DNA of 64,000 nucleotides from an uncultured Solirubrobacteraceae bacterium (GTDB taxonomy: Bacteria; Actinomycetota; Thermoleophilia; Solirubrobacterales; Solirubrobacteraceae), in assembly GCA_963793935.1 (NCBI GenBank), contig CAWCBZ010000005.1:75139-139138 (forward strand). Direction: 5' to 3'. The position numbers and the translations under genes were made by a program. The notes under the pieces are model-generated. The model was not told the DNA's origin and ran no database searches. It worked only from the letters and a program-made list of their open reading frames with translations. Below, piece after piece: positions 23,424 to 50,818 of this stretch (position 1 is its first letter; each line of letters opens with the position of its first letter).

Positions 23424-24394
23424 TCACGCGGTCAACCAGCGCTTGGGGTTCTGCACGAAGATCGTGTCGAACGAGGCGTCGTCCATCGCGCCGGCCTCGC
23501 GCAGCGCCGGCACGACCTCGTCGAACACGAGCGTCATCGACCAGTTGCGGATCGCGCCCTGGCTTTCGAACACCTCGGCGGCCTCGGGCGGGAAGTAGTC
23601 GATCGTCGCGCAGAAGTCCTGAGAGATCATGCAGCCGCTCGGCGTGGCCGCGGCGCAGCAGCTCGATCGCCGTCGCGTTGCGCTTGTCGATCGGCAGGAA
23701 CATGTCCAGGCCGTAGCGGTCGAGCCCGACGTAGACGCCCTTGTCGATCAGACCCTGGATGTAGTCGACGTCGTCGGTGTCGCCGCAGTGGGCGATGACG
23801 ACCTTCGCGAGGTCGACGCCCTCCTCGGCGAAGATCTCGACCTGGCGCGGGCCGGTGCAGCGACGGCCGGCCGGGAGTGGGCCATGATCGGCGCGCCGGT
23901 CTGCACGCTCGCGCGCGCGACCGCGCGGTGGATCTTCTCGACGTTCGCGTTGACGCCCGGCCGCGTCGGCGGCGCACTTGAGGAACGCCGCCTTGATGTC
24001 GGTGCCCTGGATGCCCGTTTCGGATGTCGTCGACGAAGTGGTCGGCGATCACGTCCTCGTGCGGTTGACGAAGTAGTGCGGCAGGTAGTCGTAGGTGTAG
24101 ATGCCGGTGCAGGCGACGACGTGCACGCCGGTCTCGTCGGCGACGCGTCTTCCATGAAGCGTCACGTCGCGCCCGAGGAACATCGCGGTCGGGTCGACGA
24201 TCGTCTGGATGCCGTGCTCCTTGGCGCGGCCGAGCGCCTCGAGCAGCGCGGTCGTCGTGCTCGGCCGCCTCGTCGTAGCGGCCGGGCCACGCTCGGCGAC
24301 CGGCCTCGTCGCGGAAGCGCAGGTGCTCGTGCGCGAGCGTCAGCCCCAGCTCGTCGGCCTCGACGGGGCCCTGCACGGTCTGCACGTCGGACAT
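23424..24394 (-). pseudogene. Phosphotriesterase-related protein (PTER/PHP family), multiply frameshifted
   Basis: The N-terminus MSDVQTVQGPVEADELGLTLAHEHL (frame a), internal NVEKIHRAVARASVQTGAPIMAHS (frame b) and the C-terminus ...DDASFDTIFVQNPKRWLTA (frame c) are all recognisable, but they lie in three different frames with nonsense in between. Confidence 0.6.
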
Positions 24395-24417
24395 GCCATC
24401 CCTCCCGTCGGTTTGTC

Positions 24418-25988: not shown

Positions 25989-26092
25989 CACCGCCAGCTT
26001 ACTTCTTGATCGATATATGCCTATCGGCCTCGTGTCGCGCCAGTTGAGACGGACGCGCACGCCGGACGTCCGGGCTGCCGCGCGATAGCCGA

Positions 26093-27274
26093 CTAAAGCT
26101 GTTTTGTGTCCGTTGGCAAACCAAGCAGCAGGCGGCCGCCAAGCTCCCAGGTGGCCGGCGCGACCATCATGTGCTGCGTGGCCACGTGCACGTCGCGAAA
26201 GCGCCGCTGCAGCATGCTCGAGTCATAGATCGACGTGCCGCCGCCGGCGTGGTACATCGCGGTGACGACCTCGGCGGCGACCTCGGTGGCGTGACTGGCG
26301 GCGAGGCGCAGGCCGAGCCGGTGCTGCTGGGCCATCTCGCCTCCGCGCTCGGCGGCGCTCCAGGCCGCGTCTGCTTCGCCGAGCACGAGCGCGCGCGCGG
26401 CGCGCAGCGACGCCTCGGCGCGCGCGACCTGCGCCTGCACGGTGGCGCGTTCGGCGAGCGTCTTTCGCCCGGCGGCGGGCGTCTTCGCGCCGGCCAGCGA
26501 CGCGAGGTCCTCGATCGCGCCGCGCGCGATGCCCAGCGCGACGGAGGCGATGCCGATCGCCAGCAGGCCGAACAACGGGAACGAGTACAGCGCGCCGGGG
26601 TGCAGCGGCCGATCGGTGAACAGCGACAGCACGCGCGCCTCGGGCACCGTCTGCGCGACGGCCGTCATGTCGTGGCTGCCGGTGCCGCGCAGGCCGGACA
26701 CCGACCACGTGTCGATCACCTCGACAGCGTCGATCGGCATCAGCGCCAGGCGCACGTCGGGGCTGCCGTCGTCGAGCAGCGCGGGCTCCTCGCCGTGGTG
26801 CACGACGACGCCGCCGAGCACCCAGTCGCAATGCGTGACGCCGCTGACAAACGACCAGCGGCCGTCGACGACGAACGCGCCGTCGCGCCGCTCGGCGCGC
26901 CCGCGCGGCGCGAACACGCCGCCGGTGACAGAGCGTCCGCCGGCGTAGATGGTTTCGGCCTCGCGCTCGGGCAGGTACGCGCCGAGCAGGCTGCTGGTCG
27001 AGGCGACCATCGCGCACCAGCCGGTGGCGGCATCGGCGCGCGCGAGCTCCTCCAGCGCGCGCACCATCTCCGTTGGGCGCGCCTCGACGCCGCCGAGCGC
27101 ACGCGGCAGACACATGCTCAGCAGGCCGGCGTCGAGCAGCTCATCGACGAGCTCGCGCGGCAGCGCGCGCTGCCGCTCGATGCGCTCGCCGTGCTCGCCG
27201 GCTCGCGGCGCGATTCGCCGCGCCGCTGCGAGCGGCGACTCCGTCGTGCCGATGGTCTCGGTTTCGATCGCCAT
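26093..27274 (-). CDS. Acyl-CoA dehydrogenase family protein (possibly flavin-dependent monooxygenase oxygenase component)
   Basis: ACAD N, middle (WSFVSG) and C-terminal helical domains recognisable over 393 aa. Confidence 0.7.
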   Translation of the reverse strand: MAIETETIGTTESPLAAARRIAPRAGEHGERIERQRALPRELVDELLDAGLLSMCLPRALGGVEARPTEMVRALEELARADAATGWCAMVASTSSLLGAYLPEREAETIYAGGRSVTGGVFAPRGRAERRDGAFVVDGRWSFVSGVTHCDWVLGGVVVHHGEEPALLDDGSPDVRLALMPIDAVEVIDTWSVSGLRGTGSHDMTAVAQTVPEARVLSLFTDRPLHPGALYSFPLFGLLAIGIASVALGIARGAIEDLASLAGAKTPAAGRKTLAERATVQAQVARAEASLRAARALVLGEADAAWSAAERGGEMAQQHRLGLRLAASHATEVAAEVVTAMYHAGGGTSIYDSSMLQRRFRDVHVATQHMMVAPATWELGGRLLLGLPTDTKQL

Positions 27275-31388: not shown

Positions 31389-31800
31389 ATGGGATTCGAC
31401 CAGTACCACGAGCCACCGGACGAGCTGCCCGAGCAGACGCGCACGTTCGCGCGCCTGTGCTCGTCGCTGACCGAGGAGGCCGAAGCGATCGGCTGGTACG
31501 AGCAGCGCCTGGCGATCGAGCGCGACCCCGAAGCCAAGGCGGTCATGTCCGACGCGGTCGGCGAGGAGTACAAGCACTTCAGCATGGACCTCGAGTTCCT
31601 TCTGCGGCGCACGCCGAAGTGGCGCGCAGATCGCCCAGGGCGTGCTGTTTCAGCCCGGCGACATCGTCGAGCACGGCGAGGCTGCCGAGGCCGGCGCCGA
31701 CGACGACGGCGACGAGGGCTCAGCCGCGGCGGCGGCACCGGCTCCCGCCGCGGCGGGCGGCTCGCTGAGCATCGGCAGCCTGCTTGGGGAGGGGCTATGA
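31389..31800 (+). CDS. Encapsulated ferritin-like cargo protein (EncFtn/Flp), interrupted by a 1-nt frameshift near 31626
   Basis: N-terminal 80 aa contain EAIGWYEQRLAIERDPEAKAVMSDAVGEEYKHFSMDLEFLLRRTPKW, the EncFtn metal-binding helices. The C-terminal cargo-loading peptide ...GSLSIGSLLGEGL* is encoded in the +1 frame and ends with TGA overlapping the encapsulin ATG (ATGA). Confidence 0.65.
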
Positions 31801-32612
31801 GCCATCTGCTGCGCGAGCACGCGCCGATCACCGACGACGGCTGGAAGCTGATCGACGAGGAGGCGCGCGAGCGCCTGCTGCCGGGGCTGGCCAGCCGGCG
31901 CCTGGTGGACTTCTCCGGGCCGCACGGCTGGGAGCACTCGGCGACGAACCTGGGACGCGTCGAGCGCGCGAACGTGAGCGAGCAGAAAGGCGTCGAGGCC
32001 AACCGCCGTGTCGTGCTGGCGCTGGTCGAGCTGCGCTCGCGCTTCACGGTCTCGCGCGAGGAGCTGCGCGCGGGCGATCGCGGCGCCGAGGACGTCGACT
32101 TCGAGTCGCTCGATGCGGCCGCACAACGCATCGTCGACGCTGAGAACACGGCGGTCTTCCACGCCTGGCCGAAGGCCGGCATCGAGGGCATCACGGCAAG
32201 CTCGCCGCACAAGCCGATCGTGCGCGGCAAGACCTTCGAGGACTACCCGGGCTGCGTCGCGCGTGCGGTCGAGCTGCTGCTGCGCAACGGAATCGCCGGC
32301 CCCTACGGGCTGGCGCTGGGACGCGAGGACTACACCAGCGTGGTGGAAACGGCCGAGCACGGCGGCTACCCGCTGCTGGACCACCTGCGCAACATCATCA
32401 AGGGCCCGATCGTGTGGGCGCCGGGCGTCAGCGGCGCCGTCGTCGTGAGCATGCGCGGCGGCGACTTCGACTTCCAGTCCGGCCAGGACCTGTCGGTCGG
32501 CTACGAGTCCCACGACGCCGACTCTGTGTCGCTGTACATCGAGGAGTCCTACAGCTTCCGCGTGCTGACGCCCGAGGCGGCGGTGGCGATCGCGGCGCCG
32601 AAAGGACGCTAG
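31797..32612 (+). CDS. Family 1 encapsulin nanocompartment shell protein (linocin M18-like)
   Basis: MSHLLREHAPITDDGWKLIDEEA..., GPYGLALGREDYTSV, DHLRNII.GPIVWAP, RGGDFDF.SGQDLSVGYESHD track the HK97-fold encapsulin family along its whole length. 271 aa. Confidence 0.85.
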   Translation: MSHLLREHAPITDDGWKLIDEEARERLLPGLASRRLVDFSGPHGWEHSATNLGRVERANVSEQKGVEANRRVVLALVELRSRFTVSREELRAGDRGAEDVDFESLDAAAQRIVDAENTAVFHAWPKAGIEGITASSPHKPIVRGKTFEDYPGCVARAVELLLRNGIAGPYGLALGREDYTSVVETAEHGGYPLLDHLRNIIKGPIVWAPGVSGAVVVSMRGGDFDFQSGQDLSVGYESHDADSVSLYIEESYSFRVLTPEAAVAIAAPKGR

Positions 32613-37901: not shown

Positions 37902-38009
37902 GCGACGCGCTTTTGTTGGGAGGCGTAGAGTTCGAGCGACCCGTTTTCACTCGACATCCGGAATAGCTCTTACCGCGGCCGACCGTACCTTGCTGAGAGG
38001 ATTCTGAAA

Positions 38010-38615
38010 ATGCCTTCATCGCCGGCTCCCGCACCTGCACCTCCACCGGCCTTTGCGTGGGATGGGCTCGGCCAGTTCAAGGCAGGAGGCCGATTTCTCG
38101 ATGGCTATCCCTCAGACGTGCGCACCTTCTACTCGCCGGTGGACAACGTCCATCAAGTGCTCGTCTCGCTGCTGGCATCGACGCAGAAGTCGATCGTGCT
38201 GAACATGTACGGCTACGACGACTCAGACCTCAACGACATCATTCTCGAAAAGCTCGAAGACGACCATGTGTATGTGCAGATGAGCCTGGACAAGTCTCAG
38301 GCGAGCGGGAAACGTGAGCGGAGCTTGCTGGCGAAGTGGAAGAACGACGCCGCCGGCAACTCGATCGCGATCGGGCACTCGAGCAAAGGCGCGATCTCGC
38401 ACATGAAGATTCTGATCGTCGATGGCGTTTACACGGTGCGCGGATCGACCAACTGGTCGCTCGGTGGCGAGCAGGATCAGGACAACGAGCTGACGATCCA
38501 CAACAACGCCGTCATCGCCGCCGAGACGCGAGCGGAGCTCGACCGCAATCATGACGAAATGCTCAAGCAGATGGCCAAGGCCAGGTCGACTGGCCCCCCG
38601 GCGGGGAAACAATGA
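38010..38615 (+). CDS. Phospholipase D-like (single HKD) domain protein, Nuc-like
   Basis: HKD motif SHMKILIVDG....GSTNWS. One PLD domain of approx. 170 aa, implying a homodimeric Nuc/BfiI-type fold. Lower GC than flanks. Stop overlaps the next gene's ATG. Confidence 0.65.
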   Translation: MPSSPAPAPAPPPAFAWDGLGQFKAGGRFLDGYPSDVRTFYSPVDNVHQVLVSLLASTQKSIVLNMYGYDDSDLNDIILEKLEDDHVYVQMSLDKSQASGKRERSLLAKWKNDAAGNSIAIGHSSKGAISHMKILIVDGVYTVRGSTNWSLGGEQDQDNELTIHNNAVIAAETRAELDRNHDEMLKQMAKARSTGPPAGKQ

Positions 38616-40098
38616 GCGGCGAGCCTGACCTGTCACTCAAGCGACTGAACGACATCAAGCACATCGTCGTGCTGATGATGGAGAACCGATCCTTCGACCA
38701 GATGCTCGGCTATCTCAAGCGGGACGGAATGCCCGACGTGCGCGGGCTCGACGGCACGGAGTCGAACCCCGACGCGCAAGATACGGAGCACGCGGTGTTC
38801 GAATGGAGCGCCGAAGACACGGTGTTCCACCCCCTGCAAGATCCGACCGGCAAGATCCTCGACCCCTGCCATTCCAAGGGATGCGTCGCCGAGCAGCTGG
38901 CCGATGGCAACCGCGGCTTCATCAAGAACTTCATCGCGACGCGCACGGACAAGGACGGAAACGCGGTGAGCATCCCCGAGGAGTACCACGCCCTGCCGAT
39001 GGGCCACTACGGGTCACAGCACCTTCCGATGTATGACTTCCTCGCGCGCAACTACACCGTCTGCGACGCCTGGCACAGCTCGGTCCCAGGCGACACTTGG
39101 CCGAATCGGCTCTTCGCGCTCGCCGGTCGCGAGGGGCCCAAGGCGCTTGCGCCGCTGATGGAGCGCATCAAGGAGGAGTTCAAACACGAATTGCACCTGC
39201 TGCAGAACGCACCGATCTACGACGTCGCGACCTTTCCCGACACCTGGCTGCCGACCAGTGGCGCTGGTACTCCCATGATCCCGCGACCCTGCGCGCAGCC
39301 GACGATCGCTATCGCCAGTTCGGCGAGCGCGGGAACTTCGCGTTCTTCGACCGACGGGCGGTAAGCATTCTCACGGAACTGCTGGAGAGCCCGATCGTCA
39401 GCCCCGACAGCTTCCTCGACGACGCGGCCAGCGGCAGGCTGCGCGAGGTCTCGTGGATCGATCCCAATTTCATCGACCTGAAAGTCCTCGAGACGGACTC
39501 CAACGACGACCACCCACCCTCGGACGTACGTGCCGGGCAATCGCTGGTCTTGGAGGTCTATGAGGCGCTGAGGAACAGTCGCGATTGGCAGGACACGCTG
39601 CTGGCGATCGTCTATGACGAGCACGGTGGGTTCTACGACCACGTCGCGCCGCCGGCGCTGGGGTTCGAGGACAGCTCCGGTTATCAGACCTTCGGCGTGC
39701 GCGTGCCCGCCCTGCTGGTAGGGCCACGCGTGCCAGCAGGTGTCTGTCACACGCAGTTCGATCACACGAGCCTGATCAAGACGATCTTGCTGCGCTTTGC
39801 CGAGCAGCCCCAGGAGGCGATCGCCCAGATGGGTGCACGCGTCGCGCATGCCGAGCATCTCGGCGTTGTGCTGGGCGACGAGCCGCGTGCGGCGATCCCT
39901 GACAACGAGGACGCTCGCAGCGCGATCAGCGAATGGCGGGCGAGGACCAAGGCGGCGAGGCGAGGCACGCCGCCCGATCAGAACCCGTTGGCGTGGGACG
40001 GGGCCGGCGGCGCCGTCGGCCTGCACGAGTTCCAGGAAGACTTTGCTCGGTTTGCACTTTCGATGCGCAGGGCGGGGCTTCCCTATGGAGAGCCTTGA
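38612..40098 (+). pseudogene. Phosphoesterase family protein (non-haemolytic phospholipase C / acid phosphatase, PF04185-like) with one frameshift near 39250
   Basis: HIVVLMMENRSFDQMLG, PNRLFALAG (frame 1) and then WIDPNFID..DDHPPSDVRAGQ, IVYDEHGGFYDHV, GVRVPALLVGP (frame 2). Total approx. 495 aa, as expected for the family. Confidence 0.65.
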
Positions 40099-40120
40099 TC
40101 CCGCGTAAGCGCTGTCAGCA

Positions 40121-40531
40121 CTAAGCCCCTTTCTTGGGGTCGCCTCCGATCTGCTCAGCGGCTCTCGACGCTGCCTGCTGGGCGTCGTCTTGCTTGTCTC
40201 CGGGAACGAACGCCTGAACAGCGGCGAGCTTGGCGTGCGCTTCACTGGCGTCTTGCGCGAGACCCTTGCTTTGATCGGTGCCGATCTTGATGCCGAGGTA
40301 GGCGCCAACCACAGCCGAGATCACGCCGAAAGCAGCAGTCGTCAACGGGATCATCGTGTTGGCGTCCTTGCCACTGTCGATGAAGGCCATCGTCGAGATC
40401 GCGAGCGCCGTGATCGCGAACACGCCGAACAGCACCGCGACCAGGCCGCCGACGCTTTGGATGCTCTCGGCCGTTGGCAAGACTTTGTTATCTCCCGATC
40501 CGGCCTGGTGCTGCCCCACTTGAGTCGCCAT
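40121..40531 (-). CDS. Hypothetical small membrane protein
   Basis: Two hydrophobic helices flanked by charged regions. No homology recognised. Confidence 0.35.
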   Translation of the reverse strand: MATQVGQHQAGSGDNKVLPTAESIQSVGGLVAVLFGVFAITALAISTMAFIDSGKDANTMIPLTTAAFGVISAVVGAYLGIKIGTDQSKGLAQDASEAHAKLAAVQAFVPGDKQDDAQQAASRAAEQIGGDPKKGA

Positions 40532-40740
40532 CCGAGTCCTCCCTTGCGCGCAGTTTGCGCATATTGGGGAAACGTTCGACTGAGCTTACTCATTCCGACT
40601 GAGCGGCGGATTCTGCCAGCTCGGTATATCGGCTGGTCGGTTTGTGTGAGACGCTGTTAAGCAGTTACCGACACGGCTCGTCGAGTGTCGACTAGGCGGC
40701 GTTCGCTTCTGGGATCTCGACCTGCTCAAGCCATTCCGGC

Positions 40741-40823
40741 CTAGCAAAGCTTCAGGGAGGGCGAAGTGCGCCAGCTTTTGCGTGCGTGCTTGCGCGGCGC
40801 CGACGTCTACTGCGGCACTGAGG
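40741..40823. repeat. Direct repeat copy A (approx. 85 bp, about 88% identical to 41478-41562)
   Basis: ctagcaaagcttcagggagggcgaagtgcgccagc...ggcgccgacgtctactgcggcactgagg recurs 737 bp downstream with a few substitutions/indels. Confidence 0.7.
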
Positions 40824-41090
40824 CAGCGGGCCTGCCGGGGGCGGCTCAAGCGCCACCTCTACTCAGAGAGCAATCCGAGGTCGCGTCTGGGGCACGCAGC
40901 CTCAGTTCAAGTGGTCGCTATCACGGTGCGGGGTCTCCGTCGTCACCATCCGGCTCGTCTCCGATCCGACCATAAGGTCCAATGCGGAACGCTGGATCGT
41001 TGGGTCCACTCGGCGGCCCGCCCCCGCCCCGCGTCATGTAGAAGCCGATGACAACTACCACGACGACCGCTATGCCGATGATCGCGTCTT

Positions 41091-41374
41091 TTATCGCCAC
41101 CAAGTTTTGCGCATCCGTCGGCCGACAGGTTTTTCAGGCACGTTGACGAGGCGCTCGTTGAAGGTCCAGCGCAGGCCTTCAGCCGTGCCGACGTAAAGAC
41201 CCGGCTTGCCGTAGAGCAGGCGCTTGTGTTCGAGCAGGCCGTCGCGAACCAGCAGCGATAGGCAGGCGTAGGCCCAGTTGCGGCCCATGCCAAGCGGAAC
41301 ATCACGTGCTCGGCAGAGGCAGCTCCGATCCGTACCAGCCAGCTGACGATCTGGGCATCGCGGTCTGTTTGCAT
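41091..41374 (-). pseudogene. Remnant of a winged-helix DNA-binding protein gene (two frames)
   Basis: MQTDRDAQIVSWLVRIGAASAEHVMFRL (one frame) followed by ...AYACLSLLVRDGLLEHKRLLYGKPGLYVGTAEGLRW (another frame) together look like a wHTH/MarR-type recognition domain split by a frameshift. Low GC. Confidence 0.3.
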
Positions 41375-41477
41375 GGCGCCTCCTTGCGGCGATCGACTTG
41401 AGTACTTCCGACTAGATGTCGATCAGAGGCAGCTATAGACCCCCTGACAATTTCGAGCTAGCGCAAGCCAACCGCAG

Positions 41478-41562
41478 CTAGCAAGGCTTCAGGGAGGGCG
41501 CGAAGCGCGCCAGCTCTCACGTGCTTGCTTGCTCGGCGCCGACGTCTACTGCGGCACTGAGG
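41478..41562. repeat. Direct repeat copy B
   Basis: ctagcaaggcttcagggagggcgcgaagcgcgccagc...ggcgccgacgtctactgcggcactgagg. Indels break any common reading frame, so likely non-coding. Confidence 0.7.
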
Positions 41563-41665
41563 GGAGCAGAGATGCCGAGCGGGCTCAGGCGCTGCTGCCC
41601 CTAAGAGCTTGCTGTTGGCCCACCATGAGCCAGCGGGGTTGAGCTGAGTGCTTACATAGCCCCCG

Positions 41666-42331
41666 TTAAGGAGCCGTCACGGTGCGCGGACCGTCGCCTT
41701 CCAGCCAGTAAATGCGCCCAGGAACGGCAGCCAACGAGCGATAGTCGATCGTTGCAGAGCTCGCAACGTGCTGAGGATCGCGCGAGCCGGCACGGAGCTC
41801 GAAGACATCGTTGACGGTCGGGGTCGCTTCTGCACCGGCCGTGATCCAAGCCACTGTGCCCTTTGGGGTAAGCACCAGGTTCCTTACCCCGCCCTTGGGC
41901 GATGGAAACTGGCCAGCGGCCGCGCATTCCCGCGATTTTCCCTCCTGAACATTCACTCGGCAAACCTTCCAAACATCGACTGGAGAGGTCCCGCCGATCT
42001 CCAACGCGTAGGCCGCATAACGCCCTGCGACGCTCAAGTGGCTAAGGGTGACTTCAAGGTCGGGCCCCGGCATTTCATCGCCCAAGCGGGTGAATCTTCC
42101 CGATGGCCGCCACAAGGCGAACGTGCTCTGGTAGGGAATTTCCGCGACGTGGCGCTGTCGGGCTTGCACGACGCGCAATTGCTGCGTTTCGGCCAGGGTG
42201 CGACACCGATACTTCCGGCAGGAAGGCGCGACACGGCGCGCACTCGCTGCCGCGAGAGGCCACGCGAGCCCGAGCGGCACCACCAGCGCAACCGCCCCAA
42301 AGCGAAGCATTCGCAGGACGCTATAGCTCAC
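41666..42331 (-). CDS. Secreted hypothetical protein, translationally coupled to upstream giant gene
   Basis: Signal peptide MLRFGAVALVVPLGLAWPLAAASA. Start codon overlaps the stop of 42331-45954. No known domain. Confidence 0.5.
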   Translation of the reverse strand: MSYSVLRMLRFGAVALVVPLGLAWPLAAASARRVAPSCRKYRCRTLAETQQLRVVQARQRHVAEIPYQSTFALWRPSGRFTRLGDEMPGPDLEVTLSHLSVAGRYAAYALEIGGTSPVDVWKVCRVNVQEGKSRECAAAGQFPSPKGGVRNLVLTPKGTVAWITAGAEATPTVNDVFELRAGSRDPQHVASSATIDYRSLAAVPGRIYWLEGDGPRTVTAP

Positions 42332-45300
42332 TACGTCGTCTTGTGTCGATAAACATAAAAGATTGGCCTCGGCATATTACCGGGGTTGAGCAACCCTGAA
42401 TCTTGATGCCCACTCGACTTCGCTTCGCCTCTCATCTCGTAATAGTAGAAGCTAGTGATCTGACGGCTCTGACGCGTCAGCTGGTGCGCGCCATCCTCGA
42501 CATAGGCGTGCATGATCCGCAGTGCGTTCGTGCTGCTTGCAGCCGGCTTATTTACGTATTTGTTTGAGAAAATCACGCCTTGCTCGCTCAGCCAGATGTC
42601 TGGCAGCTTACGAGCTTTGGTCACTTTATCGATCTCCTTGCGGAATGCCTTAAAGCGACTCCACCATTTGCCTGGTTCCTTCCATTCCTTCGTGCCCGCG
42701 CGAAGGCCGTCCGTGTAGGTGTGCCAGGCCCACCGTGCTGCCTGCGGATGGCTCATCCCAAGCAGGTATTTATGGAAATATTTACCGCCCGTGGTCTTCC
42801 CATTGCCCGCTTCGGGCATCTTTGTATCAGAGAAGTCCCCGGCCGCCACGAGGCAGTTGTGGTTTTTCGGCGCACAGAGCGCGTCCAGCACCGCCCAGTA
42901 TTCTCCAGCTAGTTCAGCCTTTGTCAGTTCGCTCGTGGGTTGCGTGGGATTATTGGGCTCATTCCACGCGGTAAATAGGTTGACATTTTTCAAAACCGGG
43001 TTGGTCAAGAATTCAGTGACGGCCGTGGTGTATTCAGCGCGTTCCGGTGGAGTGCTGCAGCTCTTCGTCGCCGATTCCCCGACTTTTGAGTGCGCGATCC
43101 ACGACCCATCGCATCGCTCAAAGGAGATCAGCGGCTGACCGCCGCCTGGAAGTGCGCGGACTTTTTCCACCCATTTTTCGACGTCTTTGAGCTCTTGTTC
43201 TTGTGCCGTACCCCCATGGGTGCCCGCATATACGATGTCAAACGGCACAGTGCGGCGGACACGTTTCACATGAAGGCTTTTGAAAGTACCCTTGCCGAAA
43301 TATTCGAAATGCGTCCCTTCAATGACATGGTTGTTGTCTGAGATGCCGTACTGCGCCGGCGCTAGGTCCGGAATGCTTTTTGCCACCAGCGGCGCGAATG
43401 AGCCTTCTCCTTCTTCTTCTTCTTCTTCTAGGTTCGCTTCGTTTTCCGGTTCTGGATCTTCTTCGCCGCAGTATTCAGTGGGTACATAACACGCTCCTTC
43501 TGCAACTTCTTCCTGGGCTTCGAATTCCGAGGAGCCTTCTTCTGCTTCGTCAGCTGGTTCAGTGTCGCTCGTGATTTCGCCGAGCGCGTTGTAACAGTAC
43601 GTCGTCGATCCGCCTTCTTCGCCCGGTGCGTCCGCCACGACGGTCTGCCCTACATCAGTTTCGGGGTTGCAAGTCGGGCTGGCTGGCGCTTCATAGGCGT
43701 ATGAGGTGATTTCGTCTTCGCTGCCTGGCGTGCTGACCGTGCCATTGACGATGCGCCGCGTAGACGTTACGCGGTCACTTTCGTCGTAGGCGATGATATA
43801 GGTCCCGCTAGGGTCGACGATTTTGTTGAGCAGGTCTTCGCTGGTGTATCCGTATTTCGTTTCGTGGCTTTCTGGACCGGTGACGGTCGTCAAACGCGCC
43901 GAGCCGTCGTACGTATAGTTCCATTCTTCGCCGTGAGCCCCGTTGATTTTCGTCACGTAGCCTGAGAAGGGGTCACGAGTCAGCGTCAGTTCGTTGCCGT
44001 GTGTGTCGCTCAAGCCCGTCAGGTGTTCGTACGCGTATGAGAGAGAGATCGTGTTGCCTTCCCCGCTTGGATCAACGATCTGTTCGGGGAAGCCGTCGTT
44101 GTCATACTTCCAATCGGTTTCAGTTTCTGGGTAGGTGACGGTCCGCGTGCCATTTTCATGTTCGATCAGCGTCGGCGGTTCTTCGCCGGTTGTCGTGAAC
44201 GCTTTGTCTCCCGCGCTTGGCGCCCCATCGGCGGACGGGTTTCGGTCGTAACGGCGATCGGAGCCATCGGGCTGTTGGACGATCGCCGAGCCGTCCCATC
44301 CGGTGTGGTAGAGGATGCCGTCTTCACCTGTGCTCAGCCGCCAAAGGTGCATCGCGCCACCGGCGATCTGATCGTACTGGCTGTTGTAGTAGCGGACCAA
44401 TTCCGTTTCGTAACCTTCGGTTTCGTAGCGCATTTCGGGATCGTTCACAAAGAGGTTGCCGTTGACGACGTTGACGCCCATCGTCGCGCCGTAGCCGATT
44501 GAGTCTTCGATCAGCGTCTGGTCAGGCTGGCTACCGAGATGCGGCTCATAGAGCACTTCGACAAACGGTTCCGGTGTTTCTTCGGGGCTGTCGGTCTGCT
44601 CGAAGGCGTAGTAAGTCGGCGTCGTCTCATTAGCGGCCTTCAGTAGAACCCCGTGATTGGAGCTGGGATTTCTGATCCATTCTTCGACTTGCGGCGTGAA
44701 GCCCCAACTGACAAATTCTCCTTCGTTGGCAGGGCTGACGGTTTGTTGGCCGATGGGCGTCGAGCCAAAGTCGCCGCCGGCGCTGGACCAGGGGGTTTCG
44801 TAGGCCGACTGGTTCCACGTGACATAGTCGGTGAAGTCGTGCGATAGGGCGAAGGCCTGGATATCCAGGGGTTCTTCGCCGACGTGCCAGTCCTCCCATA
44901 GCGCGAGGCGCGAGCGAAGGACGTTGGCGTCCGTCGGAACGCACGTCATATCGAAGTGGGTGACAGTGCGCGCGACGTGTTGGGGCGATTCAGAGTCAGC
45001 GCCAATGAACAGCGGGCCGCCGCATTCCTGAGCGTTGGCCAAGTCTTGACTGATGATCGCGCAGTCTTCGCCTTCGGTGTAATAGACTTCAGGGTCGATC
45101 ACAACCGGAAAGACTCGCTTGGGGCTGCTCAGCCATGCCTTGTCGAGTACTAGAGAGAGAGTTGAGCCGTCGCTGCTCAATGTGTAGTGCACGGGACGGC
45201 TTGATCTAAAGGAACGGTTCGGCGAGGAGTCGGTGACGGTAGGAGGAGCCAGCCAGTACGCCCTCCGCCCCGCCGTGTTCGCGATGTCCACCCTTCCGCT

Positions 45301-45954
45301 GGGACGCAGCGTCGCATGAAGTCCGGGACTCAGAGAGAGCGCGTAGCGATACGTCGTCGGGGCCGCGCGGCTTGCCAAGGAGAGCGTCTCGCGGACGCTG
45401 TCGGGCGACGAGACGTAGGAGACGCTGACGCCCGGCAGAGCGCCGGCATAGGAGCGGCGGCTGCCCACCGCAGAACCTTCTGCCTTGCTGGCGCCTTCCA
45501 GTGCAAAGGAGAAACGCTGGCCGCTCGGCCCAACCTCGATCGGGCCGCTGCCCAGCGAGGCGGGCAGGCTGATCGGAACAGGGGTAGCGGCCGGGTGCCA
45601 CTTGCCGTCGGCCGAGCGTTGAAGGCGGTTTTCGATCGCATGCCAGACACCGTTGACCCGATAGTTGATCGGATGGGAATAGATGTGCTGAGAACGGGTT
45701 CCGTCGGCTAGCTGGTAGGTGTCTGAGGTAGCTGTCCTCAAGCTTGGGATCTCTCGCGGAGCCGCTTCGCCCTGCCGATCGGGGCGGGCTGCCGTCGCCG
45801 TGTTGCCCGAGGCTGGCAGCGCGCCGAAGGCCAGCAAGCCAAGCACCGCGCAGGCGAGCAGGTAAGCGGTCGGATGCAGGCGGCGGTCCGCGGGTCGCTC
45901 GACCTGCCGCCTCAAGCGACACCAACGCGCGCAACTACGCAGCGACGTACGCAT
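42331..45954 (-). CDS. Large secreted Rhs/WapA-like YD-repeat protein with C-terminal clan GH-A glycoside-hydrolase-like domain
   Basis: 1207 aa. N-terminal signal/TM. ENRLQR segment resembling the DNRLRE-domain N-terminus of Gram-positive Rhs proteins. YD repeats (YDRNPSADG, YTYDGSARLTTVTG, YGYTSEDLLNKIVDPSG, IAYDESDRVTS). Acidic (E)6 linker. C-terminal domain has FTAWNEPNN (acid/base) and IWLSEQG (nucleophile) spaced like a GH5-type TIM barrel. Codon usage is A/T-richer than the genome. Confidence 0.65.
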   Translation of the reverse strand: MRTSLRSCARWCRLRRQVERPADRRLHPTAYLLACAVLGLLAFGALPASGNTATAARPDRQGEAAPREIPSLRTATSDTYQLADGTRSQHIYSHPINYRVNGVWHAIENRLQRSADGKWHPAATPVPISLPASLGSGPIEVGPSGQRFSFALEGASKAEGSAVGSRRSYAGALPGVSVSYVSSPDSVRETLSLASRAAPTTYRYALSLSPGLHATLRPSGRVDIANTAGRRAYWLAPPTVTDSSPNRSFRSSRPVHYTLSSDGSTLSLVLDKAWLSSPKRVFPVVIDPEVYYTEGEDCAIISQDLANAQECGGPLFIGADSESPQHVARTVTHFDMTCVPTDANVLRSRLALWEDWHVGEEPLDIQAFALSHDFTDYVTWNQSAYETPWSSAGGDFGSTPIGQQTVSPANEGEFVSWGFTPQVEEWIRNPSSNHGVLLKAANETTPTYYAFEQTDSPEETPEPFVEVLYEPHLGSQPDQTLIEDSIGYGATMGVNVVNGNLFVNDPEMRYETEGYETELVRYYNSQYDQIAGGAMHLWRLSTGEDGILYHTGWDGSAIVQQPDGSDRRYDRNPSADGAPSAGDKAFTTTGEEPPTLIEHENGTRTVTYPETETDWKYDNDGFPEQIVDPSGEGNTISLSYAYEHLTGLSDTHGNELTLTRDPFSGYVTKINGAHGEEWNYTYDGSARLTTVTGPESHETKYGYTSEDLLNKIVDPSGTYIIAYDESDRVTSTRRIVNGTVSTPGSEDEITSYAYEAPASPTCNPETDVGQTVVADAPGEEGGSTTYCYNALGEITSDTEPADEAEEGSSEFEAQEEVAEGACYVPTEYCGEEDPEPENEANLEEEEEEGEGSFAPLVAKSIPDLAPAQYGISDNNHVIEGTHFEYFGKGTFKSLHVKRVRRTVPFDIVYAGTHGGTAQEQELKDVEKWVEKVRALPGGGQPLISFERCDGSWIAHSKVGESATKSCSTPPERAEYTTAVTEFLTNPVLKNVNLFTAWNEPNNPTQPTSELTKAELAGEYWAVLDALCAPKNHNCLVAAGDFSDTKMPEAGNGKTTGGKYFHKYLLGMSHPQAARWAWHTYTDGLRAGTKEWKEPGKWWSRFKAFRKEIDKVTKARKLPDIWLSEQGVIFSNKYVNKPAASSTNALRIMHAYVEDGAHQLTRQSRQITSFYYYEMRGEAKSSGHQDSGLLNPGNMPRPIFYVYRHKTT

Positions 45955-46280
45955 ACCCAGCCTCCCTCATAAGTGCGTGTGGAGCCGCAGCTCCTATGTC
46001 CCCCGGTGCTTCGCGGAGAGCCCTGTCCGAGCTAATGCGCAGGTCTATTGCAGATTCGCTTGCCTGTCAAGACCCAAATAACGGGACGTCGACATTCATA
46101 CGACGCGATGTCGATATTTGGGCTGCGCGCGCCAGGTTGAATGAGCGCGGAGCGGGTACACAGAAGTGGCACCCGGCCGAAGCACGGTCGCGCTAACGCA
46201 ACTGAGAGGCCATACCGGACAGGGCATGAGGCCTCCGGCTCGGCCGGGTGCCAGTGCAAAGCCTAACCGGCACTTCTTGA

Positions 46281-46355
46281 GGGTGAGCGACGGGACTTGA
46301 ACCCGCGACCGCCTGGACCACAACCAGGAGCTCTACCAACTGAGCTACGCCCACC
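46281..46355 (-). tRNA. tRNA-His (GTG)
   Basis: Reverse complement GGTGGGCGTAGCTCAGTTGGTAGAGCTCCTGGTTGTGGTCCAGGCGGTCGCGGGTTCAAGTCCCGTCGCTCACCC folds as a cloverleaf. Anticodon loop TTGTGGT, encoded G-1, T-loop GGTTCAAGTCC. Confidence 0.85.
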
Positions 46356-47142: not shown

Positions 47143-48417
47143 TCAGCGACGTACGGGCACCTGTGCCTGCCGCGCCTGCCGCGCCTGCCAGGCTTCGACC
47201 ATGGCCAGGCGCTGGACGATCGTCGGGTGGTTGTCGAACAGCACGTAGCTCCACGTCGGCGGGTTGGGATTGGCCAGGCTCGTGCGTGCGAGATCGGCAA
47301 ACAGCGCACGTGCCGAGGCGGGATCGCGCGTGGCGCGCAGCGCCGACCAGTCGGCCTCGGCCTCCTGGCGACGCGAGACGATGTTCATCAGCGGCGCGGT
47401 CAGCAGCTGCAGCACGACGAACACGAACAACGCCACCGGCACCGCCTGCGGGCTGGCGAGGCCGCCGCGCGGGCGCGTGAACAATGCGACGAGGCCGGCC
47501 GCCGGCAGCAGGAACAGCGCCAGCCAGCCGACGTCCTTGAGGATGTGCTTGTGCGCGATGTGGCCGAGCTCGTGCGCGACGACCACGCGCACCTCGCCGC
47601 GCGAGAAGCGGCCGTCGAGCAGCGTGTTCCAGAGGATCACGCGCCGCGTCGAGTCAAAGCCGACCGACTCGGCGTTGGGCGCGGTCGTCTCGCGGTCCAC
47701 GCGCTGCACGTCCGCGCGCGTGCCTGCAACGTGCTCGATGCGCGCCAGTTCGCGCACGTCGGCGGCGGTCGTCGGCGCGGTCAGCGGTTCGGTGTTGGGG
47801 ATCAGATAGACGGTCAGAAAGGCCGACAACAGCGCCAGTGCAGCGAACGCCGGCGCGGCGACGGCCCACCACCAGCGCCGCAGCACGCCGGCCAATCCCA
47901 TGGAGATCAAAAGCGCCAGCGAGACGAACAGGAACTTGCCGCCGAGCGAGAGAAAGCTTTCGATGAGCGACGCCACGTAGCCCTGGTGGGAGATGCCGTG
48001 TTTGCGCTGCCACCAAACCGCGGCCAGGCCGAACGGAATCTCGGCGATCCACAGCACGGCGAAGCCGAGCATGCCGAGCATCATTCCCGTGCCGATGCGC
48101 CCGGCGGCGGACTCGCGCATCAGCCGGTGCCCGCAGCGTGCGTACAGCGCGAACACGACCAGCACGGTCAGCGCGCCGAGCAGCGCGTCGATCGCCAGAA
48201 AGCGTTCGTAGGAGGCGCTGCGGCGCAGAAACGCCGCCGAGAAGACATGGTGCGGGTCGACGTGCGCCAGCTGCAGCCCGCTGGGCACGCTCGTGTGCCA
48301 CAGCGCGTGCGCCGCCAGCGCCCACAGCACGGCGAACGCGACCAGGCCCACGAGCACCGCCGAGCTGTGCGCGGGGCGCGCCGCCGCCCGCCGCCAGATC
48401 GCGCGCGCGCCGGCCAA
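47143..48417 (-). CDS. M48-family zinc metallopeptidase (HtpX/Ste24-like), membrane-bound
   Basis: HEXXH motif HELGHIAHKH plus downstream E, multiple TM helices, 424 aa. Confidence 0.75.
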   Translation of the reverse strand: MAGARAIWRRAAARPAHSSAVLVGLVAFAVLWALAAHALWHTSVPSGLQLAHVDPHHVFSAAFLRRSASYERFLAIDALLGALTVLVVFALYARCGHRLMRESAAGRIGTGMMLGMLGFAVLWIAEIPFGLAAVWWQRKHGISHQGYVASLIESFLSLGGKFLFVSLALLISMGLAGVLRRWWWAVAAPAFAALALLSAFLTVYLIPNTEPLTAPTTAADVRELARIEHVAGTRADVQRVDRETTAPNAESVGFDSTRRVILWNTLLDGRFSRGEVRVVVAHELGHIAHKHILKDVGWLALFLLPAAGLVALFTRPRGGLASPQAVPVALFVFVVLQLLTAPLMNIVSRRQEAEADWSALRATRDPASARALFADLARTSLANPNPPTWSYVLFDNHPTIVQRLAMVEAWQARQARQAQVPVRR

Positions 48418-48422
48418 CTGGC

Positions 48423-49781
48423 TCAGGTCAGGCCGACGTCGGGAGCGCCCGGCGCCGCAGGCGCGCCAGGCGCCGCGGAAGCAGGCGCCGCCGGTGCGCC
48501 GAGCGCGGCCGCTGCGCCGGCGCCGTCGGGCGTGTGCGCGAGCACGGGCCCGCTGTAGGGGTAGGCGTCGGTCAGCAGCAGCAGGTAGCCGTGCGTCTGT
48601 GCCTGGTAGCGCAGCGCAAGCGCGCCGGCGTTGCGCAAGCCCAGCGGCATGCGTCCGCGCGCCAGCGAGCTGAACCAGCCGAGCAGCGCGACGACGAAGG
48701 CCAGCACGCCATAGGCGCTCGCGAGGATCAGCGCGGGGATCGCCAGCACGATGCGAAAGCCGGTCTTCCAGCGGTTCTGGCGCTCGCGCGGCGCGACGGC
48801 GATTTCAAAGGGGTAGCTGCCGCGCTTGCCGACGAAGCCCGGAAACGGATTGGCGATCAGGTAGAGAAACGCGTAGACGTGGTTGGCATAGCGCAGGTAC
48901 GCGGCGAGAAAGCGATGCAGCCACTGCGGCGAGCGGCCGGCGAACAGCGTGGCAAACCAGTTGAGCACCGCGCAGACGAGCATCAGGATGCCCCACAGCT
49001 GCAGCCAGATCAGGTGCGGCAGCGCGAGCAGCAGGCGAAAGAACACGGTCAGGCGCGAGCGACGCAGGTCGTCGTCGAGTTCGAGTCGGATCGGGTCCTC
49101 GCGCACGGGCAGGTCGGGCACGGCCGCCAGCGGATCGCTGTCGGGGTAGCGGTCGGTCAGCAGCAGCGCGTAGGACCAGAACTGCGCGCCGTAGCAGAGC
49201 GCGTAGGCGGCGCCGTCGCGCAGCCCGCGCGGCATCGTGCGACGAGCGAGGATCGCGAACCAGCCGAGGACGGCTACGCCGGGCAGCAGGCCGCCGGTGT
49301 AGGAGTAGGAGCGACGGCCGGCGCCGCTGGAGTTGGGGTTGCCGTTGAGCACGACGACGATCAGCAGCGCCGGCAGCAGCAGGATGCCGCGGAACAGGAC
49401 AGTCCACCGATTCTGCGGCGAGGGTGGCGGGATCTCGACGTCGATCGGATAGCCGGGCGTGCCGTCGAAGCTGGGGTAGGGGTTGGCGGCGAGGTGCAGG
49501 TAGGCGTGGAAGTGCGTGGCGTATTTGACGTACGCCGCGAGCGGGCCGTACAGCCAGGCGGGAGGGCGCCCGAGGATCAACGTGGCGAACCAGTTGACGA
49601 CGGCGAGCGCGATCGTGACGATCCCCCACAGCGTGAGCCAGATGAAGAGCGGGATCGAGAGGATCAGGCGGAAGACGACGGTCAGGCGGCTGCGCTGGAG
49701 ATCGTCTGTGATCAGCAGCCGGACGGGATGATGTCCGCCGGGTGCGGGCGACGCGGATGCTGAATGCTCGGACACGTTCAC
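48423..49781 (-). CDS. Tandem DUF4389 domain membrane protein
   Basis: Two internal repeats, each with RSRLTV(V/F)FRL(I/L)L..P..IWL..WGI and NWFATL..GR.P, the DUF4389 signature. Start overlaps the MTase stop by 4 nt. Confidence 0.7.
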   Translation of the reverse strand: MNVSEHSASASPAPGGHHPVRLLITDDLQRSRLTVVFRLILSIPLFIWLTLWGIVTIALAVVNWFATLILGRPPAWLYGPLAAYVKYATHFHAYLHLAANPYPSFDGTPGYPIDVEIPPPSPQNRWTVLFRGILLLPALLIVVVLNGNPNSSGAGRRSYSYTGGLLPGVAVLGWFAILARRTMPRGLRDGAAYALCYGAQFWSYALLLTDRYPDSDPLAAVPDLPVREDPIRLELDDDLRRSRLTVFFRLLLALPHLIWLQLWGILMLVCAVLNWFATLFAGRSPQWLHRFLAAYLRYANHVYAFLYLIANPFPGFVGKRGSYPFEIAVAPRERQNRWKTGFRIVLAIPALILASAYGVLAFVVALLGWFSSLARGRMPLGLRNAGALALRYQAQTHGYLLLLTDAYPYSGPVLAHTPDGAGAAAALGAPAAPASAAPGAPAAPGAPDVGLT

Positions 49782-50719
49782 CTGATCGGCTCGGCCGTGC
49801 GCGCTCTTGACCGTTTGGCTTGCACGCCCGCCGAGACGCCGGCGGCGCTCACGCCAGGGTCGCGGTCCTCCGCGTCAGGACCCTCGACGGCCTGGCCAAG
49901 CCGCTCGCGCATCACGCGCACGGCCTCGGCGTTGGAGTCGATCAGCACGTAGCGCCGCTGAAGCGCGGCGGCCACGGCGCCGAGCGTGCCGCTGCCGGCG
50001 AAGAAGTCCAGACACCAGTCGCCAGGCCGCGTGGAGGCCTGCACGATGCGCCGCAGCACGCCCTCGGGCTTCTGCGTCGGATAGCCGGTCTTCTCGGCGC
50101 CGTTGGTGGGCACGATGGTGTGCCACCAGACGTCCGTCGGCAGCTTGCCGCGCGCGGCCTTCTCTGCGGTGACCAGGCCGGGCGCCATGTAGGGCTCGCG
50201 GTCGACCGCGGCGGAGTCGAAGTGGTAGCGCGACGGGTGCTTGACGTAGACGAGGATCGTGTCGTGCTTGGCCGGCCAGCGGCGCTTGGCGCGCGCGCCG
50301 TAGTCATAGGCCCAGATCAGCTCGTTGAGAAAGCACTCGCGACCGAAGATCTCATCGAGCAGCAGCTTGCAGTGGTGCGCCTCGCGGTAGTCGATGTGGA
50401 AGTACAGCGTGCCGTCCTCGCGCAGCAGCCGGTGCGCCTGCTGCAGGCGCGGCGCGAGAAAGCCGAGGTAGTCGTCGAAGGCGTCGTGATAGGAGGACTC
50501 GGCGAGCAGCCGCGTGCGATAGCGACGTCCCTGAAAGCCGACGCGCTCGCCGTCGTCGTCTCCGGCGACCGCCAGCGTCTTGCGCACCTGCGCGCGGCCG
50601 GTGTTGAACGGCGGGTCGATGTAGATCAGCTGAAACGAACCGTCTGAAAAACGCGGCAGCAGCTCCAGGTTGTCGCCGAGCAGGATCTGATCGATCCGCG
50701 GTGCTTCGGGCGCATGCAC
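49778..50719 (-). CDS. Beta-class DNA methyltransferase (N6-adenine or N4-cytosine)
   Basis: Motif IV IYIDPPFNTG precedes motif I LDFFAGSGTLG, the circular permutation defining beta-class amino-MTases (CcrM/M.PvuII-like). 313 aa. Confidence 0.8.
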   Translation of the reverse strand: MHAPEAPRIDQILLGDNLELLPRFSDGSFQLIYIDPPFNTGRAQVRKTLAVAGDDDGERVGFQGRRYRTRLLAESSYHDAFDDYLGFLAPRLQQAHRLLREDGTLYFHIDYREAHHCKLLLDEIFGRECFLNELIWAYDYGARAKRRWPAKHDTILVYVKHPSRYHFDSAAVDREPYMAPGLVTAEKAARGKLPTDVWWHTIVPTNGAEKTGYPTQKPEGVLRRIVQASTRPGDWCLDFFAGSGTLGAVAAALQRRYVLIDSNAEAVRVMRERLGQAVEGPDAEDRDPGVSAAGVSAGVQAKRSRARTAEPIR

Positions 50720-50818
50720 GCGTTGAGACTACGTCCGACCGCCGATGGAGCGCCCGAGCGACGACGAGATCTCTTTAAAATATTGATTTCACTCGAGCGT
50801 GCGCGCGGCGACGCCCGG

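Follow-up and report, generated by a model that had tools for sequence, protein, structure and literature searches.

A single-HKD PLD-like gene and an overlapping PF04185 phosphoesterase gene in an uncultured Solirubrobacteraceae bacterium

Described here is a pair of overlapping genes from an uncultured Solirubrobacteraceae bacterium, the first encoding a single-HKD protein of the PLD superfamily (hereafter PLD) and the second a PF04185-type phosphoesterase (hereafter PLC). On balance, the pair is probably a vertically inherited, co-translated cassette of the Solirubrobacterales coding for two soluble cytoplasmic phosphoesterases that would function in phosphodiester turnover or salvage, with the frameshift in PLC likely arising from a consensus error. 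The chief value of this analysis is one of correction: the low GC content and the frameshift give the pair the appearance of a foreign, decaying module, and neither mark stands up. The interest that is left is modest, and lies in the recurrence, within a soil lineage that has received little study, of a Nuc-like HKD enzyme co-translated with a cytoplasmic PF04185 phosphoesterase, and in the high conservation of the PLD family. Current knowledge is unchallenged by the PLD-PLC pair.

Sequence features of the gene pair

The features of the locus are listed in Table 1, where all positions refer to the window, namely the complete 64-kb stretch of DNA that was analyzed.

Table 1. Coordinates of the features discussed in the text
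Feature	Position	Strand	Evidence
Spacer 5' of PLD, 108 nt, relatively AT-rich (GC 0.56)	37902..38009	.	
PLD-superfamily gene, single-HKD, Nuc-like, 201 aa, apparently intact	38010..38615	+	PF13091, HKD motif
PF04185 phosphoesterase (PLC), N-terminal 208 codons, with ENRSFD and the GDTWPNR nucleophile motif	38612..39235	+	
Frameshift site, one base absent between 39235 and 39236 relative to four intact homologues	39235..39236	+	tblastn, DNA alignment
Premature stop in the original frame, giving a 250-aa truncated product (P0249 of the source record)	39362..39364	+	
PF04185 phosphoesterase (PLC), C-terminal 287 codons, -1 frame, with YDEHGGFYDHV; stop at 40096-40098	39236..40098	+	
6.2-kb low-GC3 insertion from the PLC stop to tRNA-His, missing at the syntenic locus L165	40099..46268	.	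synteny breakpoints
tRNA-His (GTG)	46281..46354	-	

A sequence-only reading of this DNA had proposed a PLD-like protein of 201 residues with one HKD motif, and that assignment holds. The open reading frame, whose product is identical to P0280 of the source record, matches PF13091 (PLDc_2) over profile positions 1-130 of 132 with an E-value of 2.5e-9 and a score of 37.5 bits, the gathering cut-off being 27. Each chain contains one complete motif of canonical form, H131-x-K133-x4-D138-x6-G145-S146-x-N148, and all six of the named residues are invariant in an alignment of 25 homologues. The Nuc profile (PDB 1BYR) covers residues 37-165 (E = 1.9e-4), with the HKD motifs aligned. Ahead of this stretch lies a conserved N-terminal extension of 36 residues (FxWxxLGxYKAxGRFLDGYP). 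An AlphaFold2 model, for which the input was a low-diversity alignment of 25 sequences, displayed a pLDDT of 54, too low for the model to be of use. The homologues of PLD fall into 2061 clusters, the closest of which are 70-84% identical to it. The family could represent a stand-alone, cytoplasmic, Nuc-like enzyme that is unusually conserved and has no assigned role.

The stop codon of PLD (TGA, 38613-38615) overlaps the start codon of PLC (ATG, 38612-38614) in the sequence caATGAgc, exactly as had been read beforehand. Likewise borne out is the description of PLC as a PF04185-type protein of ~495 residues. The profile match is split, with positions 1-145 found in the 38612-39364 frame and positions 223-353 in the 39097-40098 frame, and the two halves score 83.6 and 122.1 bits, respectively, against a gathering cut-off of 23. 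The catalytic motifs ENRSFD, T-x-PNR, and DEHGGFYDH are all present in the translations and align to those of NPC4. The catalytic core begins 15 residues after the start of the protein, and the N-terminal part is ~76% identical to the intact homologues P0121, P0127, and P0130.

The AT-rich intergenic stretch noted previously in front of PLD is indeed there (Table 1), and presumably holds the promoter and the ribosome-binding site. No sigma-70-like site was found within the spacer, nor did it match an Rfam RNA family, and no conserved upstream motif was visible upon comparison of 14 related loci.

Chromosomal setting

The GC contents of PLD and PLC are 0.60 and 0.63-0.66, respectively. By comparison, the two genes upstream reach 0.68-0.69, and the window as a whole 0.685. 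The claim that the pair is lower in GC than its flanks is thus correct for the upstream flank only, because the downstream flank, from 40.1 to 46 kb, is lower still at 0.56-0.63. Furthermore, the low value is not a mark of foreign DNA. At every one of 85 loci PLD falls below its flanks in GC, yet its GC3 averages 0.90; the GC2 of PLC is 0.42-0.44 at all loci compared. The low GC content of the pair is a family trait that reflects amino acid composition.

Three segments of the window (31.5-35.8, 38.05-40.10, and 46.27-56.1 kb) align with locus L165 at 68-85% identity. The segment carrying PLD and PLC displays ~77% DNA identity, which is the same level as that of the neighboring genes, and the backbone on which it lies is syntenic with both L165 and L003, contigs of other Solirubrobacteraceae. 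A reading of the pair as island cargo consequently does not survive. In L165 an intact pair is positioned directly beside tRNA-His, 112 nt from the PLC stop, and the tRNA gene therefore marks the ancestral right-hand neighbor of the pair. In the window these are separated by the 6.2-kb insertion, where GC3 is 0.68-0.77 versus 0.86-0.91 in the backbone genes. The insertion contains a 136-aa ORF without a family match, a 221-aa ORF, and a 1207-aa DNRLRE/RHS-repeat protein, together with an ORF pair at 40943-41411 that is possibly frame-broken; no integrase was found there. It is this segment that is the recent insertion in the window rather than the pair, for which it is context and not a constituent.

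The possibility that the pair is cargo of an island integrated at tRNA-His was also considered and rejected. By synteny the pair belongs to the backbone and the inserted DNA is 40099-46268, and the 3' end of the tRNA has no second copy in the window. A 15-of-17 repeat at 37891/46276 is short, imperfect, and of a kind often due to chance. The pair is an old resident of a variable interval that extends from a MIP-channel gene to tRNA-His, and not recent cargo.

Distribution of the pair

A search for syntenic pairs in other genomes revealed five that are intact (L165, L177, L178, L013, and L068) and one remnant, a PLD of 68 aa located 5' of PLC in L170. The possibility that homologues of the two genes never co-occur elsewhere is dispelled by these pairs. 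PLD and PLC overlap by 4 nt in L177 and L178 and by ATGA in L013, and are separated by a 2-nt gap in L165; the PLC start codon in L068 is ambiguous. Across the pairs, the identities of PLD and PLC drop together (84/76, 80/75, 80/73, 77/75, and 64/57%). Literature searches covering PF04185 and nucleases with a single HKD motif yielded no description of such a pair.

The two genes do pair, although not obligately, and they mostly occur apart. PLC is missing from 78 of the 80 species genomes that contain PLD, and four close relatives of PLC (L166, L167, L168, and L171) stand alone or follow other genes. Since most PLDs are without PLC and these close PLCs are without PLD, the partnership is dispensable. 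The matches listed in the metagenome scan with the PLC profile were relatives at ≤61% identity, and no PLD lay near any of those listed. All-against-all clustering of the ORFs from 80 loci revealed no conserved partner genes for PLD beyond lineage-specific synteny, and in L048 and L063, for example, its neighbors are unrelated regulators and transporters.

In L166 the place of PLD is taken by a PIN (VapC) gene, to which the close PLC is start/stop-coupled. There is a small chance that the coupled cassette is an uncharacterized two-enzyme system of soil Solirubrobacterales in which the PF04185 protein acts together with a nuclease (the PIN/VapC protein in L166), either in conflict or abortive infection or in the salvage of phosphate from nucleic acid.

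The broken reading frame of PLC

With intact homologues as tblastn queries, the frame was observed to switch at position 39235 of the window. In the DNA alignment the homologues read TT[CT] A C[CG] CG and the window reads TTT-CCCGA. This 1-nt deletion, which interrupts the PF04185 reading frame, is absent from every intact PLC homologue aligned. A single frameshift had been reported near 39250; its number was right and its position ~15 nt off. A sister-strain Logan contig (L001, 98.6% identical) ends at position 38683 of the window, short of the frameshift.

Programmed -1 frameshifting was examined as an explanation and discarded. The site, ACC TTT CCC GAC, has no slippery heptamer of the form X XXY YYZ, and the intact homologues, with one base more, read straight through.

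The frameshift is more likely an error in the assembly consensus than a real mutation. Upon repair of the frame, PLC retains all 136 columns that are invariant in the family and 64 of the 68 that are nearly so, and its identity to the homologues is equal to the left and to the right of the shift. There are no further lesions. Elsewhere in the 64 kb, at least six other frame disruptions occur, five of them within ~1.7 kb, and these resemble assembly noise: the EncFtn gene has a 1-nt insertion, the AMP-binding gene is spread over three frames, and the phosphotriesterase gene has both a frameshift and an in-frame stop. Comparable out-of-frame tails are also seen in other PLC fragments from metagenome assemblies (P0242, P0245, P0248, and P0253). 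The idea of an assembly artefact, raised earlier as an alternative, thus has real support in the other frame-broken conserved genes of the window.

All of these observations count against a second explanation, to which we give perhaps a one-in-three chance at best, namely that the frameshift is real. PLC would then be a very young pseudogene with a 250-aa product that lacks the DEHGG metal site, PLD would still be functional, and the locus would be another instance of the partner loss that recurs across this lineage. Indeed, the partners have been split repeatedly, with PLC lost in the syntenic L003 and L015 and PLD reduced to the remnant in L170. The deletion lies outside of any long homopolymer (the surrounding bases are T3|C3), and the neighboring 6.2-kb insertion attests to a recent disturbance of the locus. 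Note that the in-frame stop of the phosphotriesterase gene is atypical of an indel error, and because of it real pseudogenization may be occurring in this genome. If the frameshift is real, the inactivation of PLC is very recent. A consensus error remains the preferred explanation.

Cellular location and possible roles

Neither protein has the hallmarks of export. The N-termini, MPSSPAPAPAPPP... for PLD and MSGEPDLSLKRLNDIKH... for PLC, are without a hydrophobic stretch in the hydropathy analysis and no export signal was identified. The maximum Kyte-Doolittle values over 19 residues are 1.07 and 1.18, respectively, and the hydropathy scan revealed no membrane segment in either protein. Both are therefore predicted to be soluble and cytoplasmic.

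The sequence-only reading had suggested a possible role in defense or virulence. Neither is borne out, given that the PADLOC and NCBIfam matches fall far below the curated cut-offs, export signals are absent, and no plasmid or phage copies of PLD were found. That PLD and PLC are secreted toxins attacking membrane lipids in virulence or competition, like the mycobacterial or Pseudomonas PLCs, is highly improbable. The PF04185 family does include secreted haemolytic and non-haemolytic PLCs as well as AcpA, and a putative RHS-type toxin is encoded 2 kb downstream. The RHS gene, however, is on the opposite strand within an insertion distinct from the pair. Sec or Tat signals and hydrophobic segments are missing from both proteins, and PLC starts 15 residues before its catalytic core. 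Moreover, the organism belongs to the soil Solirubrobacterales, here seen in metagenome bins only.

Somewhat less improbable, but still unlikely, is an anti-phage or conflict module in which a DrmC/Nuc-like nuclease is joined by a phosphoesterase as partner or controller within a tRNA-linked defense hotspot. PLD shows weak PADLOC matches to DrmC (E = 9e-9) and DpdK (E = 6.5e-4). In some genomes the neighbors of PLD or PLC include an Mrr-type nuclease with a methyltransferase, an integrase, VapBC, or transposases. Several copies adjoin tRNA genes, and the PIN-coupled PLC described above fits such a module as well. The curated cut-offs, on the other hand, are far off (23.2 bits versus 133 for the DrmC model NF038319, and 31 versus 297 for NucT), PLC has no match in the PADLOC defense library, and no known defense system was detected above cut-off for either protein with PADLOC or NCBIfam. 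The other components of DISARM or Dpd are missing: the PADLOC scan of the neighboring genes yielded neither a Drm helicase nor a DUF1998 protein, its one match being a type II-like methyltransferase ~11 kb away, past tRNA-His. PLD is 65-85% identical across the Solirubrobacterales and Streptosporangiales, with ordinary regulatory and transport genes as neighbors, and no copy of it turned up in the plasmid and phage collections searched. Finally, the pair lies on syntenic backbone, outside of inserted DNA.

For the preferred reading, a cassette for phosphodiester turnover or salvage, the following scheme can be envisioned. By analogy with Nuc, PLD would function as a homodimer with one active site built from two HKD motifs, and would cleave phosphodiester bonds via a phospho-histidine intermediate. 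Because the nearest characterized relatives of PLD (Nuc, NucT, and DrmC) are nucleases, the protein would more probably act on nucleic acid. PLC, to judge from its motifs, would be a metallophosphoesterase of the alkaline phosphatase superfamily, with the threonine of TWPNR as its nucleophile and its metal ligands provided by ENRSFD and DEHGGFYDH. Relatives within PF04185 hydrolyze phospholipid head groups (NPC4 and the bacterial PC-PLCs) or a broad range of phosphomonoesters (AcpA). Most economically, the coupled enzymes may break down a phosphodiester-containing polymer or lipid in a stepwise manner, with the phosphate released serving turnover or phosphorus salvage.

Relationship to characterized enzymes

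Like PLD, Nuc from pKM101 (PDB 1BYR) and NucT from Helicobacter (PDB 6EHI) are proteins of ~150-200 residues, each chain having a single HKD motif. The similarity is weak, with E-values of 1.9e-4 (1BYR) and 0.036 (6EHI), and PLD scores well below the cut-offs of the NucT and Nuc equivalog models, at 31.2 bits versus 297 for NF010492 and 21.4 versus 211 for NF010490. Nuc and NucT are exported. PLD is chromosomal, has no signal sequence, and carries its own 36-residue N-terminal extension, whereas Nuc is encoded on a plasmid. DrmC of DISARM and DpdK of Dpd share with PLD a single PLD-like domain and weak profile matches. Unlike in those systems, DrmA/B/MII/D/E and the dpd genes are not found nearby, and the contexts of PLD in most genomes are not defense-like.

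PLC differs from NPC4, PC-PLC, and AcpA in having no signal sequence and in its 1-nt deletion. Its two halves score 78.3 and 53 bits with the PC-PLC model TIGR03396 (cut-off 580), and 25.2 and 65.8 bits with TIGR03397, the Burkholderia-type acid phosphatase model that represents the AcpA equivalog (cut-off 363). At ~495 residues it is also shorter than the 688 positions of the PC-PLC model and the 666-744 residues of the bacterial PLC chains in the PDB. PLC shares the PF04185 fold and catalytic motifs with all three, namely PC-PLC, AcpA from Francisella (PDB 2D1G; profile E = 5e-25), and NPC4 (PDB 8HAV; profile E = 1.9e-43), the solved chain of which is similar in length at 494 residues.

The PLD-PLC gene pair

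As described from the sequence alone, a PLD-like gene with a single HKD motif (PLD) runs into a PF04185 phosphoesterase gene (PLC) that is carried in two frames; the coordinates of the relevant features are provided in the table. The TGA stop codon of PLD overlaps the ATG start codon of PLC (caATGAgc, 38612-38615).

The HKD motif of PLD is canonical (H131-x-K133-x4-D138-x6-G145-S146-x-N148) and invariant among 25 homologues, and the protein has a conserved N-terminal extension. The closest solved structures are those of the Nuc endonuclease (1BYR, E = 1.9e-4, with the alignment spanning the HKD motif) and then NucT, and the matches to NucT, DrmC, and DpdK in NCBIfam and PADLOC are all sub-threshold. 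The family contains 2061 clusters at 90% identity, and its members are 65-85% identical among Solirubrobacterales, Streptosporangiaceae, Propionibacteriaceae, and Gaiellaceae bins. PLD was not found in the plasmid or phage collections, and in IMG/VR it occurs on only five contigs. The nearest solved relatives of PLC are plant NPC4 (8HAV, E = 1.9e-43), bacterial PLCs, and AcpA. It retains the ENRSFD, GDTWPNR, and YDEHGGFYDH motifs and scores far under the PC-PLC and AcpA equivalog cut-offs. PLD and PLC both lack hydrophobic segments and N-termini resembling signal sequences, and a cytoplasmic location is therefore assumed for the two.

Features of the window and of homologous loci (L-numbers)
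Feature	Locus and positions	Strand	Remarks
AMP-binding enzyme and phosphotriesterase genes	window 23365-26222	-	adjacent, heavily frame-broken
EncFtn/encapsulin (Linocin_M18) ORF, 407 aa	window 31389-32612		EncFtn open frame continues into encapsulin
PLD ORF, 201 aa	window 38010-38615	+	PF13091 (PLDc_2), 37.5 bits, E = 2.5e-9, above gathering score
PLC 5' piece	window 38612-39364 (frame)	+	PF04185 profile positions 1-145
PLC 3' piece	window 39097-40098 (frame)	+	PF04185 profile positions 223-353
221-aa ORF	window 41666-42331	-	starts at last base of stop codon of 1207-aa gene
DNRLRE + RHS/YD-repeat protein, 1207 aa	window 42331-45954	-	in 6.2-kb insertion
Methyltransferase + 820-841-aa protein	window 49778-53281; L003 14376-17875; L165 10806-14235		between tRNA-His and tRNA-Arg
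PLD-PLC junction	L165		2-nt gap
PLD-PLC junction	L177		4-nt overlap
PLD-PLC junction	L178		4-nt overlap
PLD-PLC junction	L013		ATGA overlap
PLD-PLC pair	L068		PLC start codon ambiguous
68-aa ORF over PLC start	L170 5798-6004		PLD with an internal deletion; residues 3-50 and 179-193 left
tRNA-proximal sites	L006 10634-11440; L013 12133-12224; L057 10776-10851; L063 11648-11724; L168 7522-7595

Base composition and genomic setting

The low GC content on which the sequence-only reading had relied is real, with values of 0.60 for PLD and 0.63-0.66 for PLC versus 0.68-0.69 for the two genes upstream (0.685 for the whole window), and the AT-rich stretch preceding PLD corresponds to a 108-nt spacer with a GC content of 0.56. 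The deficit lies, however, in codon positions 1 and 2 (GC2 0.39-0.47; GC3 0.78-0.87), and it is family-wide: PLD homologues are lower in GC than their flanks in all 85 loci (mean 0.616 versus 0.705; mean GC3 0.90), and PLC homologues show a GC2 of 0.42-0.44 everywhere. For these reasons the low GC does not point to a foreign origin. The truly atypical DNA is the 6 kb after PLC, where GC3 is 0.68-0.77 as compared to 0.86-0.91 in backbone genes.

The closest homologues all come from Solirubrobacterales or Solirubrobacteraceae metagenome bins. Two loci from Solirubrobacteraceae are collinear with the window, namely L165 (JGI Ga0496115_0000101) and L003 (with L004 and L015 one locus, the same as GCA_036267655.1). 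The common left block consists of acyl-CoA dehydrogenase, MFS, EncFtn, encapsulin, DUF2630, MaoC, and MIP genes, and the right block of tRNA-His, a methyltransferase, an 820-aa protein, tRNA-Arg, Thioredoxin_4, VKOR, and a PAS-GGDEF-EAL protein. In L165 both PLD and PLC are intact, tRNA-His lies 112 nt past the PLC stop, and the pair (38051-40098 in the window) shows 77% DNA identity, with neighboring backbone genes at 68-85%. The window carries an additional 6.2 kb (40099-46268) between the PLC stop and tRNA-His, whereas L003/L015 keep PLD and have TetR and Mrr-type genes in place of PLC. Thus the MIP-to-tRNA-His interval is a variable hotspot in which PLD, together with PLC in two of the three genomes, is an older resident. 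The reading of the pair as an atypical accessory module, possibly related to defence or virulence, is largely unsupported.

No integrase or duplicated tRNA end was found in the 6.2-kb insertion. Its 1207-aa gene and 221-aa ORF may form a toxin/immunity-like pair, and a 136-aa ORF has no family match. Direct repeats of ~100 nt (40724-40823 and 41461-41562; 80-90% identical, spaced by 737-739 nt) lie on either side of two minus-strand ORFs (40943-41374 and 41091-41288) that overlap in different frames. These ORFs lack Pfam or PHROG matches and by eye look like a winged-helix gene whose frame is broken. Compared with L165 there is also a second insertion (47143-49781, about 2.6 kb), which encodes an M48 peptidase along with a DUF4389 protein and is bounded by a 246-aa gene on one side and by the conserved DNA methyltransferase on the other. 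The latter, a type II-like N6/N4 enzyme (PADLOC MTase_II, 465 bits), adjoins an 820-841-aa protein without a family match, and both are conserved in all three syntenic genomes. In several genomes PLD, PLC, or the pair lies ~50-1100 nt from a tRNA gene (Ala, Ser, Pro, or Gly), and an integrase is also nearby in L002/L006 and L178, which suggests that these genes tend toward the edges of integration hotspots.

Conservation of the pairing

A search of other genomes revealed PLD-PLC pairs in L165, L177, L178, L013, and L068, and in L170 a remnant showing that the PLD partner decayed in one lineage. Across the pairs, both proteins become less similar to those of the window in step (PLD/PLC identities of 84/76, 80/75, 80/73, 77/75, and 64/57%), which fits an old, co-diverged pairing. 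The pairing is conserved but facultative. Indeed, PLC is adjacent in only two of 80 species-representative genomes having PLD, and PLD was missing from all 80 PLC loci of lower similarity (≤61% identity) among the matches listed. Four PLCs that are 71-75% identical to that of the window lack PLD (L166, L167, L168, and L171). In L166 (7373-9497) the PLC, 75% identical, shares a 4-nt start/stop overlap with a VapB-VapC (PIN) pair, and in L168 it adjoins tRNA-Gly. PLD has no other consistent partner gene. Note that the gene directly upstream of PLC is of nuclease type in both L166 (PIN) and the window (Nuc-like PLD). In L165 (5822-7065, opposite strand) and L177 (4132-5352, same strand), the pair is directly preceded by a tyrosinase gene and by an ORF of 146-150 aa that matches no family.

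The frameshift in PLC

The single frameshift placed near 39250 by the sequence-only reading proved to be one missing base, although at 39235/39236. Alignment with three intact homologues by tblastn switches frame exactly at 39235, and a five-sequence DNA alignment shows one base absent between 39235 and 39236 (homologues, GC. TT[CT] AC[CG] CG.; window, ACC TTT -CC CGA). Unrepaired, translation stops at 39362-39364, yielding the 250-aa product annotated in the source record (P0249). With the frame restored, PLC retains every one of the 136 invariant family columns and 64 of the 68 near-invariant ones, and its identity to homologues is ~76% on both sides of the break; the lesion is thus an error or very recent. 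The sole independent contig, from a sister strain (L001, 98.6% identity), stops at 38683.

On balance, the likelier explanation is an artefact of the assembly or its consensus, because other genes in the window are also broken and several PLC fragments in other metagenome assemblies likewise have out-of-frame ends. In the gene for EncFtn, an encapsulated ferritin, one nucleotide is inserted near 31629 in comparison with L003 and L165 (GGCGCG[C]AGATC), which throws the C-terminal 57 codons of the gene out of frame; its continuity with encapsulin is due either to faulty assembly or to an accidental fusion of cargo and shell. The AMP-binding enzyme gene has Pfam segments in three frames (about 24.4-26.2 kb), and that of the phosphotriesterase (PF02126) contains an in-frame stop (24049-24051) and one frameshift. 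The GC3 phase switches about every 200 nt from 23.4 to 25.6 kb, with GC3 at 0.93-0.97 in every fragment, and this stretch looks like local low-quality assembly or young pseudogenes. The phosphotriesterase stop hints at some real decay. In 21 other backbone gene comparisons with L165 and L003 (~16 distinct window genes), the alignments remain in a single frame.

Possible function

The conserved start/stop overlap suggests that PLD and PLC are co-expressed. PLD would function as a Nuc-type homodimeric phosphodiesterase via a phospho-histidine intermediate, with nucleic acid the likelier substrate on the basis of its nearest characterised relatives, and the PF04185 protein as a metal-dependent phosphoesterase with a threonine nucleophile. 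The simplest joint role would be sequential hydrolysis of phosphodiester substrates with release of phosphate, in turnover or salvage. Readings of the pair as a defence system, a secreted toxin, or a case of recoding found little or no support. PLD and PLC belong to known enzyme families, their side-by-side arrangement recurs but is dispensable, and the frameshift is probably artefactual.
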